Origin: Candidatus Methylomirabilia bacterium | GTDB lineage: Bacteria > Methylomirabilota > Methylomirabilia > Rokubacteriales > CSP1-6 | NCBI GenBank assembly: GCA_041492755.1 | Contig: JBGPXN010000066.1 | Location: 1-23,176 of the forward strand | Direction of reading: 5' to 3' | Length of the DNA: 23,176 nt | Shown: positions 14,801 through 17,800 of the stretch, piece after piece | Layout: every line of letters starts with the position of its first letter | How positions within the stretch are numbered: position 1 is the stretch's first letter | Made by a program: the position numbers

Positions 14801-17800
14801 GAGGTGACGGCACGGGTCGCCTTCGGCGAAGACGCTCTGCGCGGGTCGTAGCGACATCGGTCGACACCGAGCAGCGAGCGTTCCGATGGTCGCGGCGTCC
14901 ACACCCTTGAACGAGGGAAGGCCGGTCAGGAACCCGATCACGGCCTGAAGGAGCTGCGTCATTCGCGGCTGGCCCTGGCCGCCTGGTCCGACACGATCGT
15001 CTTCAGCGAATCCTGCTCCAGCGTGAGCACGTGCTTGGCCACGACCCGGTAGGTCCACTGGCCGGGCGCGGTCTCGCGGTTGAACTGTTCGTCGGTGAGC
15101 CCGATGAGTGAGCCGATGAACCGCGCGCGCTCGGCCAGCCACTCTGCCAGGAGACGTTGCATCGGCGAGGCGGTGATCCGGGATTCATAGCGGCCTTCCA
15201 GGATTTGTCCGGTGTGGATCTTCTCGTGATCGATATCGTTCGTGATGAGGGTCCAGACGTCCTTGCCCTGCGCACACGCGTGCGAGGACGGCATCGCGAG
15301 CTCGCGGTCCGACGCCTCGAGCAGGGCGTCCATGGTGGCGGCCGTCTGGGCCATCAGCTCGCGGATCGCCTCACGGACGGTGGCTGCCATGGGGGCCTCC
15401 TGTCGATGGCGTCGAGACGCCGACTGAGTCACCGCTTTCCGGGAACGAAGAACGGCGCGGTCCCCGCCTCATGATCCGTGACGTCGATCACCGCGACCAC
15501 CTCGGGGACGTGCTTTCGCAGCAGTCGCTCGATGCCCTGCCGGACGGTCACTTCCGCCATGCTGCACCCCTGACACCCGCCGTCGAGGCGAATGCGGACG
15601 TGACCGTCGGTGGCGTCGACGAGCGTCACGTGCCCTCGATGAGCGGTGACGGCGGGGTTGATGTGCTCGTCGAGCACCCGGCGGACGCGCGCAGCGAGGT
15701 CATCGTCTTCGGCAATACGCGCCGGCGCGTCCGCGGCCCAGCGCACCTGGACTGCTGACACCTCCGGTACGGCGGAGCGCACGACTGCTTCGATACGCGC
15801 GAGCATCGGCTCGGTCGCGCCCGGCGAGCCGCTCGCTTCCAGGGTCACGAGGCCGCGGTCCACCGAAATGACACGCACCGAGCCTCCACGCGCGATGATG
15901 ATCGGCGCCACGCTGCGTTCGATGACGGCAGTCACCGCCGCGGTCGTGTCCGATCCAACGGCCGCCGGGGGGCTCGGGGCAGGAGGCGTGCTGGCAGGTC
16001 TGCCGGCGCGGGGCACGGTGCTCAGAGCCGCCTCCAGATCGGCGATCAGGTCCTCGGGTGCCTCCAACCCGATCGACAGCCGGAGCAGATCCTCGGGCAC
16101 CGGCGACGAGGCGCCCTCGGTGGTCCGGCGGTGCTCGATGAGGCTCTCGACACCTCCGAGCGAGGTGGCCCGCTTGAAGACCGTCACACCGGCGAGGACG
16201 GCCAGGGCAGCCTTCTCACCGCCCGCGACGCGGATCGAGAGCATCCCGCCGAATCCGCCGGCCATCTGTCGGGCCGCGATGTCGTGACCCGGATGCGACG
16301 GCAGCCCGGGGTAGAGAACTCGCGCGAGCGCGGGGTGGTCCTCGAAGTGTCGGCTGACGATGAGCGCCGTCTCGGACGAGCGGCGAACGCGAACGAACAG
16401 CGTTCGCATCCCCCGCTGAAGGAGCCACGCCTCGAACGGTCCGGCGACGCATCCGGCGTTGCGACGCCAGGAGCGGATCCGTTCCCAGAACGGATCGCGC
16501 CGCGCGGTGACGATCGCGCCGGCCAGGACGTCGCTGTGGCCGTTCAGGTATTTGGTCGCGGAGTGGATCACGAGATCGGCGCCGAGCTCGAGCGGGCGCG
16601 TGAGCACCGGGGTCGCGATGGTGTTGTCGACGGCGACTCGCACGTCGGCCGCATGGGCGATCTCGATGACGGCGGGCAGGTCGATGACGTCCCACGTCGG
16701 ATTCGCGGGTGTCTCGAGCCACACCAACCGAGTCCGCCCCGGGCGGATGGCGGCCCTGACGGCGGCGAGGTCGGCGGTGTCGACGAACTCGACGTCCAGT
16801 CCCCAGGCGATGCCGAATTCGGCTAACCACTTCCGCACCCCCCAGTAAAGGATGCGGGACACGACGACGTGATCGCCGGGCACCAGTGACTGGAAGACCG
16901 CGGTCGCCGCGGCGCTGCCCGAGGCGAAGAGCATGCCGGCGGCGCCTCCCTCGAGCGCGGTGAGCAAGCGCTCGGCATGGTCATAGGTCGGGTTGTCCGC
17001 ACGCGTGTACGCGCGGCCCCCGCGAGAGCTTCCGTCGGGGTTCGCCTCGTAGATCGTGGATGGATAGATCGGAGGAACGAGCGCGCCGGATGCCTCGTCA
17101 GCGTTCCCGAGCGCCTGGGCCGCGAGTGTTTCGGGTGAGAGCTTCTCCGTCATGTGCGTCGTCCCTCCTCTTTCATCACCCAGGCGACGACGATGCCCGA
17201 GGCGAGCGTCACTGCCGCCACGAGGTGGATGGCGGCCTCGAAGCCGAGCACATCCGCCACGACGCCGGACACGAGCGCGCCCACCGCATAGCCGAGGTCC
17301 CGCCAGAACCGGTAGACGCCGAGGCTGGAGGCGCGCCAGCTCGGGTGCGCGTGGTCGGTGATGGCGGCAAGCAACGTCGGGTACACCATCGCGGTGCCGA
17401 GGCCCTGGAGGACGGCGCCCATCAGCCAGGCGCCGTAGTCCGGAACGAGAACCGTCAGCCAGATCCCGCCCGCCTGCACGATCATGCCCCATGCAATGAG
17501 ACCCTTGCGCCCGAGGCGATCCGAGAGGAGCCCGGTGGCGATTTGCAGCATGCCCCACACCGCCGGATACACGGCCTTCACCACGCCGATGCGAGCGACG
17601 TCCAGGCCGTGCGCGGCGAAGAAGAGGGGGTAAATCCCCCACGACATCCCGTCGTTGAGGTTGTTCACGAGACCCGCCTGGCAGGCCGCGAACAGGCTGG
17701 CGTTGCCGAGACTGGTAACCCAGAAGATGCGCCCGAGGCGTGGCACATCGGCCGGCGTCGCCACCGCCGCCGCCTCCAGGCGGGCATGGCCGCGCGTCTC

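Follow-up and report, generated by a model that had tools for sequence, protein, structure and literature searches.

Does an enzyme of cysteine and methionine metabolism that is built into one polypeptide with an Fe-S carrier pass sulfur directly to that carrier? This question is raised by a gene located at 15429..17153 on the minus strand of a 23,176-nt stretch of DNA from a Candidatus Methylomirabilia bacterium, which was analysed at its full length and is referred to below as the window. The genome-wide survey's note described the product, g02242, as a cystathionine gamma-lyase/synthase-type PLP enzyme (aa 8-377) joined to an NfuA-like C-terminal region, assigned it to a widespread family, and suggested a direct sulfur supply outside the Isc and Suf desulfurases. 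Translation from 17153 to 15429 gave one uninterrupted frame of 574 aa, in which Pfam placed PF01053 at aa 8-377 (E 3e-111; 371.9 bits against a cut-off of 27) and PF01106 in two stretches, the best at aa 490-556 (97.3 bits); the two parts are thus joined as described. Together with the homologs and the predicted structure, these results define a PLP gamma-family enzyme with two Nfu domains behind it, the first degenerate and the second bearing CxxC. The two Pfam families occur together in all of the 120 listed homologs, in agreement with a widespread family; of the 200 proteins grouped in one ESM Atlas cluster, 100% have PF01053 and 95% have NifU. Entotheonella records were seen among the homologs, as the survey had said, while no record was labelled as Dehalococcoidia. 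An assembly chimera was ruled out as the origin of the fusion, since a single ORF is present in 16 of the 45 loci with both parts; 18 further fused ORFs were read in Alphaproteobacteria. None of 2795 candidates was a longer fusion (1006-2870 aa), a negative of little weight. Public RNA runs contained only 5-8% of the sampled words, as short pieces of relatives, and gave no expression evidence; a promoter scan returned 0 sites, and 1 terminator-like site was found against 1.6 expected.

The PLP domain (aa 8-377; 16023..17132, minus strand) was analysed by Pfam, alignment and comparison with solved structures. It belongs to PF01053 by its profile, by its fold in Foldseek and by the Schiff-base lysine K201 (16551-16553), which is conserved in 120 of 120 homologs; the surrounding S.TKY motif is present in 119, so that the survey's claim of a kept PLP-lysine motif stands. 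The residues Y49, R51 and Y103 are also retained and, judged from these residues, the domain is catalytically intact. Cystathionine gamma-lyase/synthase (8SF4, 3QHX; NF005871) shares the fold (E 7e-41, 48% identity), the PLP lysine, the YxR motif and the stacking Tyr, whereas the fusion has YWG in place of YGG, a shorter HRxxxEG loop in place of HPxxMTHAS, and two extra Nfu domains. YWG, RATSLGG and HRxxxEG mark a subfamily that is uncharacterised. The E/R/E pocket that takes the distal end of cystathionine in 8SF4 and 3QHX is replaced by A48, K108 and T330 in the fusion, column 48 being mostly A or V and column 330 T, V or P among the 120 homologs. The best 25 of 49 NCBIfam families all scored the fusion below their own cut-offs, including the cystathionine enzymes (NF005871, 389.7 versus 513; NF005758, 323 versus 440). 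Because these cut-offs are not reached and the pocket Glu pair is replaced, the domain is probably not a true cystathionine lyase or synthase, and the name given by the survey is probably wrong.

We take the two lost residues to be Glu59 and Glu339 in human CGL numbering, mapped onto the fusion through 8SF4 and 3QHX. According to the available text of PMC7293657, human CGL becomes a methionine lyase on loss of residues of this type, and methionine gamma-lyase and the engineered human methioninase (E59N/R119L/E339V) likewise lack both. In further likeness to methionine lyases, the nearest cultured stand-alone relatives (64-65% identity) adjoin methionine ABC transporter genes. The fusion differs from methionine gamma-lyase in additional Arg residues (Arg107, Arg328 and Arg342, invariant among the 120 homologs) and in scores far below the cut-offs (TIGR01328, 313.4 versus 549.7; another model, 315.8 versus 666). 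Nor is it a cysteine desulfurase of the NifS/IscS/SufS type by PF00266 (20.6 bits, below 21.5). The active-site motifs are kept in 42 stand-alone sister enzymes without any Nfu, whose neighbourhoods share no theme, the commonest family occurring in 6 of 42.

The enzyme is followed by a Pro/Ala-rich linker (aa 381-401; 15951..16013, minus strand), which is unconserved in the alignment and is the place where the split forms break. Behind it lies, by alignment, predicted structure and Pfam, a degenerate Nfu domain (aa 402-472; 15738..15950, minus strand) with GSPGA (15816-15830) in place of GGCxGC; G442, S443, P444 and G445 are each conserved in 120 of 120 homologs. Since aa 402-475 by itself matches PF01106 (29.5 bits against a cut-off of 27), the C-terminal region consists of two Nfu domains; the half that would be a degenerate A-type domain in NfuA is itself an Nfu domain. 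The CxxC Nfu domain (15432..15698, minus strand; Pfam and alignment) carries C527 (15573-15575) and C530 (15564-15566), each present in 120 of 120 homologs, and by sequence is an Nfu-type carrier; the survey had counted GxCxGC in 119 of 120, and a regular expression on the new alignment found 118. The comparison with NfuA did not survive: the available text of PMC9585516 gives the NfuA layout as A-type plus Nfu, and a split homolog scored 83.4 against 269.35 for NfuA (TIGR03341), with a match in the C-terminal half only. BLASTP returned no alignment between the two Nfu halves, whose kinship is read from Pfam and predicted topology. NfuA, NFU1 and plastid NFU2 (2Z51) share the CxxC Nfu domain, and 2Z51 also has an active and a degenerate copy in tandem; the fusion differs in having the degenerate copy first, no A-type or Nfu_N domain, and an attached enzyme.

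The distribution is patchy, as the survey had noted. Of 201 genomes of the phylum, 10 contain the two-domain Nfu part, among them the source genome (G000) and one in which a contig end cuts it; the fusion occurs in 21 of 33 genomes of one alphaproteobacterial order, and in Actinomycetes the PLP enzyme and the Nfu protein are separate adjacent genes. In 45 of 48 loci they form a single gene or two neighbouring ones, and neither fission nor transfer between phyla, of which there are at least four, has separated the parts. In quick and FastTree trees a branch with support 91 divides the Nfu-linked PLP domains from the rest. The nearest non-fused architecture is Nfu_N plus degenerate Nfu plus CxxC Nfu, and it therefore appears that the PLP domain took over the position of Nfu_N in a gene adjoining an L-amino-acid-ligase-type ATP-grasp gene: the Nfu_N-type gene precedes the ligase in G684 and G685, and the fusion precedes it in G682. 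Rieske oxygenase genes lie 3' of the fusion in 9 of the 18 alphaproteobacterial fusion loci read.

In the window the fusion is the third gene of an operon headed by a CstB-like persulfide dioxygenase. This MBL-fold protein of 245 aa (18373..19110, minus strand; sequence and alignment) is a single domain, without the fused rhodanese domain and its acceptor cysteine, and its C190-G191 aligns with the HGAGSxCGK loop of the CstB type. It is followed by an MFS transporter (17150..18376, minus strand; Pfam and compared loci), whose stop overlaps the start codon of the fusion. Codon 20 of the dioxygenase is an in-frame TGA (19051..19053, minus strand). Its counterpart in the solved homologs 3TP9 and 3R2U, the latter of which we take to be CstB, is the Cys that ends SYLIGC. 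Sequencing error was ruled out as its cause, since 53 of the 201 genomes have matches with one TGA. A SECIS-like hairpin with 7 bp and a 5-nt loop (19014..19032, minus strand) begins 18 nt past the TGA; in an alignment of 30 genes its third codon positions are 96-100% conserved, with one compensatory change. The case for the hairpin comes from this conservation of silent sites; folded by itself, the 69-nt stretch has an unremarkable z-score (-0.2 to -1.7). All of selA, selB, selC and selD are present in the source genome. Residue 20 is probably selenocysteine, and the dioxygenase probably represents an unlisted selenoprotein family. The divergent LysR regulator (19215..20150, plus strand) is, by NCBIfam, a close paralog of the selenium-associated LysR family NF040786 (LysR_Sec_metab), below whose cut-off of 250 it scored (241.6; homologs 236.9 and 231.2), while the selD-adjacent paralog reached 299.7 bits. 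On the 3' side of the fusion there are a short DinB-like gene (14959..15390, minus strand; Pfam and compared loci), which relatives also have within or close to this cassette, and, as the final gene of the run, a Crp/Fnr-family regulator (14201..14962, minus strand; Pfam and NCBIfam). At one related locus (L189) a NifS-like gene in two pieces and then the same DinB-like gene lie downstream of the dioxygenase-MFS cassette.

The most constant partner of the fusion or split pair is the L-amino-acid-ligase-type ATP-grasp gene. It lies 3' of the split enzyme and Nfu genes in 24 of 48 loci, and was found in 32 of 38 genomes with enzyme and Nfu as against 1 of 21 with stand-alone relatives. The adjacency spans two separate ligase lineages, with 2 changes forced. 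In 28 of 30 actinomycete loci Nfu adjoins the ligase whether or not the lyase is present, and the TDHxxGxxP(F/Y)F tail of the CxxC Nfu domain is common to ligase-linked Nfu proteins. The C-terminal Lys of Nfu was considered as an acceptor for the ligase and dropped, being kept in most, not all, ligase-linked copies. Ligase residue 294, aligned with the specificity loop of BacD, is Cys in 67 of 69 rows and a stop in 2, this stop being TGA in two genomes; the best solved relative is BL00235, whose products are Met-X dipeptides according to the available text of PMC6920838. The other partner of the ligase is the radical SAM family NF040546 (667 bits), for which the next-best family is ArsL (335 bits). 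As far as the text available extends, NF040546 (CUAEP/CCAEP radical SAM) is uncharacterised (bioRxiv 2022.07.06.499078), and ArsL is a 3-amino-3-carboxypropyl (ACP) transferase in which As(III) is bound by tail cysteines (bioRxiv 2024.02.01.577332).

The best single reading of these data, to which we give a little less than an even chance, is that a homocysteine/methionine-type lyase supplies the Nfu site of its own chain with sulfide or selenide. The PLP domain would act on a free amino acid of the (seleno)homocysteine or cysteine type and release sulfide or selenide by elimination. Lyases of this family are tetramers; the CxxC domains, paired on the oligomer, would catch the released atom and use it to assemble or mend a bridging 4Fe-4S cluster, or keep it as a persulfide-type adduct. 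The degenerate Nfu domain would deliver to clients by docking on them (the ligase system, its radical SAM partner, or Fe-S proteins that have suffered damage). In favour are the linkage of the halves, the selection on both in 120 of 120 homologs, the Nfu_N-type architecture of the nearest non-fused relative, the lost Glu pair, the methionine transporter genes beside cultured relatives, and the NifS-like and Rieske neighbours. The available text of PMC9585516 describes dimers of the Nfu CxxC domain as binding 4Fe-4S and restoring used-up clusters, and that of PMC8300815 states that C-DES, a C-S lyase without a catalytic Cys, can supply Fe-S assembly. The source genome has a complete isc operon and NifS/NifU-like and SufS-like genes, so the unit would be accessory and work beside ISC without replacing it; the survey's direct supply is kept in this sense, while its place outside Isc and Suf is qualified. 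Several points count against a hand-off. The PLP domain has no invariant Cys (C73, present in 109 of 120 homologs, is Gly in the fusion). The AlphaFold model (pTM 0.71; both linkers with pLDDT below 50) does not suggest a fixed docking of enzyme and carrier, the close relatives L030 and L033 have no Nfu gene, and the 42 stand-alone sister enzymes keep the motifs without one. A sulfide source sits oddly behind a lead gene for the removal of sulfane sulfur, and methionine as substrate would give methanethiol, which is unable to build clusters. The Rieske context comes from related genomes and the NifS context from one genome.

In view of the ligase partner and the operon of the probable selenocysteine dioxygenase, two rivals have to be taken seriously: a reaction in the opposite direction, and selenium as the element handled instead of sulfur. 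In the first, the enzyme may catalyse gamma-replacement on an activated homoserine, the Nfu CxxC offering the sulfide, selenide or arsenite. The product would be an ACP-X amino acid, which the ligase would bind through its invariant Cys or Sec and convert into a dipeptide, and the enzyme would do without radicals what the ArsL-like CUAEP radical SAM enzyme does with them. We regard this reverse reaction as unlikely, even though the linkage of the ligase to the split pair, its recurrence in two ligase lineages, the position of Cys294/TGA, the Met-X products of BL00235 and the kinship of NF040546 to ArsL all argue for it. So do the scarcity of the NF040546 enzyme, which only 4 of 27 actinomycete/Chloroflexota-type genomes have, all four with a separate ligase copy, and the metA and metY-like gene head-to-head with the fusion in two Entotheonella genomes. 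The three invariant Arg residues would fit an anionic leaving group if they lie in the pocket as we suppose. On the other hand, the fusion and the radical SAM gene are not mutually exclusive in the alphaproteobacterial order (5 of 21 fusion versus 2 of 12 other genomes), the ligase is near-core in the taxonomic family of the source genome (45 of 51 genomes), which makes co-occurrence there uninformative, and the actinomycete linkage is one clade and thus one event. In the source genome (88% complete) the ligase is on a different contig from the fusion and no homoserine O-acyltransferase was found over the cut-off; a homoserine-kinase-like gene was read by eye. A wider version, which we hold to be slightly more doubtful still, makes the fusion one arm of an undescribed chalcogen/metalloid amino-acid pathway with Nfu and a Cys/Sec ligase as its core. 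ACP-X (X = S, Se, As) would come from an ArsL-like selenocysteine radical SAM enzyme or, radical-free, from this PLP enzyme with an atom held by the Nfu CxxC, and the surrounding system would add two selenoprotein families, the persulfide dioxygenase and the ATP-grasp ligase, that the 2026 catalogue lacks.

It is rather improbable that the halves do two separate jobs, the lyase degrading surplus or toxic (seleno)methionine or homocysteine and the Nfu pair serving as an ordinary ISC-fed carrier to the ligase system or damaged proteins, with fusion securing no more than co-expression and co-localisation under thiol-reactive stress. The long flexible linker, the split forms, the motifs shared with the stand-alone sister clade and the Nfu-ligase adjacency irrespective of the lyase would suit it, as would the slot behind the dioxygenase-MFS cassette, which holds varied genes in 20 other genomes and the fusion in 0 of 20. 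The adjacency kept through transfer and fission is hard to explain without a hand-off, and persulfide-dioxygenase, MFS or ArsR-rhodanese neighbours occur in 17 of 48 Nfu-clade loci versus 0 of 42 stand-alone loci. Housekeeping methionine synthesis of the MetB/MetZ type with an incidental Nfu tail fits the JGI product name (cystathionine gamma-synthase), the presence of only two PF01053 genes in the source genome and the Entotheonella metA/metY-like context. We consider it very improbable in view of the rare occurrence in the phylum, the missed NCBIfam cut-offs, the existence of a paralog nearer to the CGS model (467 versus 390 bits) and the position of the fusion in a stress operon.

We found no description in the literature of a trans-sulfuration-type enzyme coupled to an Nfu carrier. 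If the hand-off from lyase to Nfu is real, abundant uncultured soil and marine bacteria would have a self-contained way, independent of cysteine desulfurases, of building or repairing Fe-S (or Fe-Se) clusters, and as it concerns one soluble protein it is directly testable. NifS-NifU/IscS-IscU and cyanobacterial C-DES also couple a sulfur-releasing PLP enzyme to Fe-S formation (available text of PMC8300815); the fusion differs in its PLP family, its lack of a persulfide-loop Cys, an Nfu in place of a U-type scaffold, and its presence beside a full isc. In the synthesis of beta-ethynylserine an unusual amino acid is likewise handled by a cystathionine-lyase-family enzyme and an ATP-grasp ligase, BesB and BesA; they have no Nfu, and no halogenase or oxidase genes were seen at the fusion locus. 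ArsL of arsinothricin synthesis and NF040546 represent the family of the ligase's alternative partner, outside the window, and the context provides a first handle on the uncharacterised cluster of CUAEP radical SAM, Nfu and ATP-grasp genes. The company of the ligase and of a selenium-type dioxygenase hints at an undescribed sulfur/selenium handling pathway. The lead gene matches the CstB type of the Staphylococcus aureus sulfane-sulfur response operons, including the loop cysteine (available text of PMC12934615), but here there is no rhodanese, a probable Sec at residue 20, a LysR regulator and a lyase-Nfu fusion downstream. The locus thus reveals a probable selenocysteine persulfide dioxygenase; standard gene callers shorten this TGA-bearing gene.

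The fusion gene (17153..15429, minus strand) is a single open frame of 574 amino acids. PF01053 matches residues 8-377 and PF01106 matches twice in the Pfam search, its cut-off being reached by residues 402-475 on their own, which bears out the genome-wide survey's description of a Cys/Met PLP enzyme joined to an Nfu with a CxxC motif. In the AlphaFold model (pLDDT 77.7, pTM 0.71) the PLP fold is followed by a linker (384-400) that is disordered and by two C-terminal domains of identical helix-strand-strand-helix-strand order, separated by a second loose linker. Both Pfam families were found in 120/120 of the homologs (69-100% identity), as the survey had reported, and their alignment keeps K201, C527, C530 and, in the degenerate domain, GSPG without exception. 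The closest named loci, from Rokubacteria/Methylomirabilota, are 72-76% identical and share the gene order of the window, which therefore most probably derives from this group.

The assignment of the PLP half to the cystathionine lyase/synthase type held only in part: PF01053 is present, but the cut-off was reached by none of the 25 NCBIfam families listed of 49 matched, and the cystathionine-type E, R and E of the two best solved relatives are replaced by A48 (before the YxR tyrosine), K108 (end of YGGTFR) and T330 (within AESLG). The aligned 120 homologs agree with these replacements. Human cystathionine gamma-lyase is described as becoming a methionine lyase when the corresponding pocket residues are replaced (PMC7293657). 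The motifs YWG, RATSLGG and HRxxxEG are common to the fusion subfamily and 42 stand-alone marine proteobacterial enzymes without Nfu, and recur in cultured Rhodobacter/Cereibacter enzymes (64-65% identity) whose genes adjoin those of a methionine ABC transporter. The pocket replacements, the shared motifs and the transporter neighbours of the relatives point to a free C4 sulfur amino acid as a likelier substrate than cystathionine; the predicted reaction may be elimination or replacement.

When 1.84 billion representatives were searched with a profile of the two-domain Nfu part, the matches were split copies, fused fragments and a group of proteins of 230-300 aa composed of Nfu_N, degenerate Nfu and CxxC Nfu. 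The fusion occurs in one alphaproteobacterial order (20 full and 1 partial, 33 genomes), in two other members of which a three-domain Nfu gene lies directly 5' of an ATP-grasp gene; in the compared genome G682 the fusion itself occupies the position directly before that gene. The simplest history is that a PLP gene took the place of Nfu_N in a ligase-linked Nfu gene. A single branch sets the PLP domains linked to Nfu apart from the others (32 rows versus 18, support 91, FastTree), and the actinomycete split forms, with PLP and Nfu as adjacent genes, are nested inside fused forms in the trees, therefore suggesting later fission. The two-domain Nfu is patchy, as the survey had noted, being found in 10/201 genomes of the window's own phylum, 3/401 of Actinomycetota and 21/33 of the alphaproteobacterial order.

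Forty-nine loci of the Nfu clade (PLP enzymes fused to or adjoining Nfu) were read and one without a detectable PLP gene was removed; both Nfu domains lie directly 3' of PLP in 45 of the remaining 48, and of these 45, 16 are single ORFs and the others split or frameshifted. These genomes are related by descent, their counts not being independent samples. Four duplicate loci were omitted from trees and tallies. Unpublished genomes are included as follows: G011 and G023 in the 38-genome partner counts, 48-locus tallies and trees; G088, G117, G160 and G211 in the 201-genome, hairpin and 51-genome counts; and G526, G347, G341, G379, G497 and G277 in the counts of actinomycete loci and ligase residue 294. 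No conclusion depends on any single one of them.

The ATP-grasp gene encodes an L-amino-acid-ligase type protein (ATP-grasp_4 and LAL_C2). It follows split PLP and Nfu genes in 24/48 loci and is present in 32/38 Nfu-clade genomes versus 1/21 with stand-alone relatives (21 of 42 such genomes were searched), and in 20/21 fusion genomes of the alphaproteobacterial order versus 7/12 others; this co-occurrence is to be read with caution, as the ligase is found in 45/51 genomes of the window's own family and its actinomycete linkage concerns one clade only. G682 adds a second ligase lineage in the tree. Within 1.5-kb flanks of the best 30 actinomycete ligase loci of the 401-genome sample, Nfu was found 28 times, the radical SAM gene 15 and PLP 3. 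Residue 294, aligned to the BacD loop bearing Trp332, is Cys in 67/69 rows and a stop in 2/69; both stops are TGA, in Entotheonella ligases (L144 6526-7734, minus; L096 2996-4204, plus) that are candidate selenoproteins. The best solved relative is BL00235, described as a ligase that accepts Met (PMC6920838).

On contig C182 of the genome carrying the window, the ligase gene is preceded by a CUAEP radical SAM gene whose tail is Cys-TGA and by a single-domain Nfu gene, the three forming one run (L088 4262-7688) with a CDGSH iron-sulfur gene divergent; a short direct repeat of ~20 nt lies at ~9900-9960, just past the radical SAM stop. The radical SAM gene, whose family is termed uncharacterised in bioRxiv 10.1101/2022.07.06.499078, occurs in 13/38 Nfu-clade genomes and 7/33 of the alphaproteobacterial order, in which the fusion was not found to exclude it.

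The fusion is the third gene of an operon whose members overlap or lie close together: an MBL-fold gene, MFS, the fusion, DinB-like and Crp/Fnr. A LysR gene is divergent from it; a selenium-linked LysR has been described (PMC9312934). ORF calling misses the MBL-fold gene (18373-19110, minus) because of an in-frame TGA at codon 20, which aligns to a Cys of 3TP9 and 3R2U. Its C190 matches the loop cysteine of both structures, the CstB counterpart of which is given as catalytic C201 (PMC12934615). Single-TGA matches occur in 53/201 genomes of the phylum, and a pattern requiring a stop at this codon matched 30 of the 38 loci given, TGA being the stop in 30/30. A 7-bp hairpin lies 18 nt 3' of the TGA, with third codon positions 96-100% kept and one compensatory change, and the genome encodes selA, selB, Sec-type selD and tRNA-Sec. 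Judged from its sequence, the gene probably encodes a selenocysteine persulfide dioxygenase. NCBIfam assigns it no selenoprotein family, further literature searches, covering main texts, returned no such family, and neither MBL-fold nor ATP-grasp selenoproteins appear among the 119 families of Table 1 in the main text of a 2026 review (PMC13188914).

The cassette of dioxygenase and MFS genes is ~5x commoner than the fusion, and the fusion is an accessory of it, because the next slot in 20 other genomes holds differing genes (DinB-like, ArsM-like, chromate-transporter or NifS-like). Of the 48 Nfu-clade loci, 17 (10 of Rokubacteria type, 7 others) have a dioxygenase, MFS or ArsR-rhodanese gene within 9 kb, against 0/42 stand-alone loci of similar length.

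From the observed sequence, conservation and context we infer substrate, direction and transfer: the PLP half would free sulfide or selenide, which the Nfu site tethered to it would take up and then hand over to clients, a reading that we favour tentatively, at a little short of an even chance. Nfu CxxC dimers are reported to hold 4Fe-4S clusters and rebuild spent ones (PMC9585516), and C-DES provides a precedent for a lyase without a catalytic Cys (PMC8300815). The reaction might instead run in reverse, so that the ligase would receive an aminocarboxypropyl-X substrate from the fusion; this is rather unlikely, and would have a parallel in ArsL, in which the aminocarboxypropyl group is described as moved onto As(III) bound by tail cysteines (bioRxiv 10.1101/2024.02.01.577332; 10.64898/2026.04.29.721666).

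That the two halves do independent jobs on one chain is unlikely. The genome (88% complete) carries a complete iscRSUA-hscBA-fdx-iscX run and a NifS/NifU-like pair, as read by eye from translations, and SufS above the cut-off; sufB was not found in it. Housekeeping methionine synthesis by the fusion is very improbable. The second of the two PF01053 genes (C254 1526-2644, L089; 52% identical, YHG motif, adjoining a trpD-like gene) is the likelier housekeeping copy. No homoserine O-acyltransferase reached the cut-off in this 88% complete genome. That the fusion marks a new pathway is rather unlikely; no description of a PLP-Nfu fusion was found in the literature as judged by titles and abstract openings, most subscription journals being beyond reach.

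Elsewhere in the window are CusA/CzcA-type heavy-metal efflux genes (2-6056, plus), a MerR regulator (7857-8264, plus), a PIG-L deacetylase gene that is spread over two frames and has lost an internal part (9397-9971, plus; intact in relatives, L004 2357-3058) and, past the LysR gene, two genes for SAM methyltransferases and one for a molybdoenzyme resembling sulfite oxidase (19904-23064); the window as a whole resembles a stress island for metals and thiols. Among the loci compared, L139 (4989-13171) and L140 (5153-13351) hold a CCAEP radical SAM, DUF169, ArsR, an ATP-grasp-GNAT fusion, a PLP decarboxylase and a probable ABC exporter of peptides, which suggests a gene cluster for a small molecule, perhaps linked to arsenic. 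In L111 (1928-8796), DyP peroxidase and encapsulin genes lie directly 5' of ArsR-rhodanese, MFS, lyase, Nfu and ligase. Entotheonella loci L006 (5493-9722) and L008 (1439-9722) have metA and a metY-like gene head-to-head with the fusion, L008 with an additional PF01053-like gene close by. Beside the alphaproteobacterial fusions (L260-L275), Rieske ring-hydroxylating oxygenase genes come next in 9/18 loci read, and some of these fusions face nitrile-hydratase-beta-like genes.
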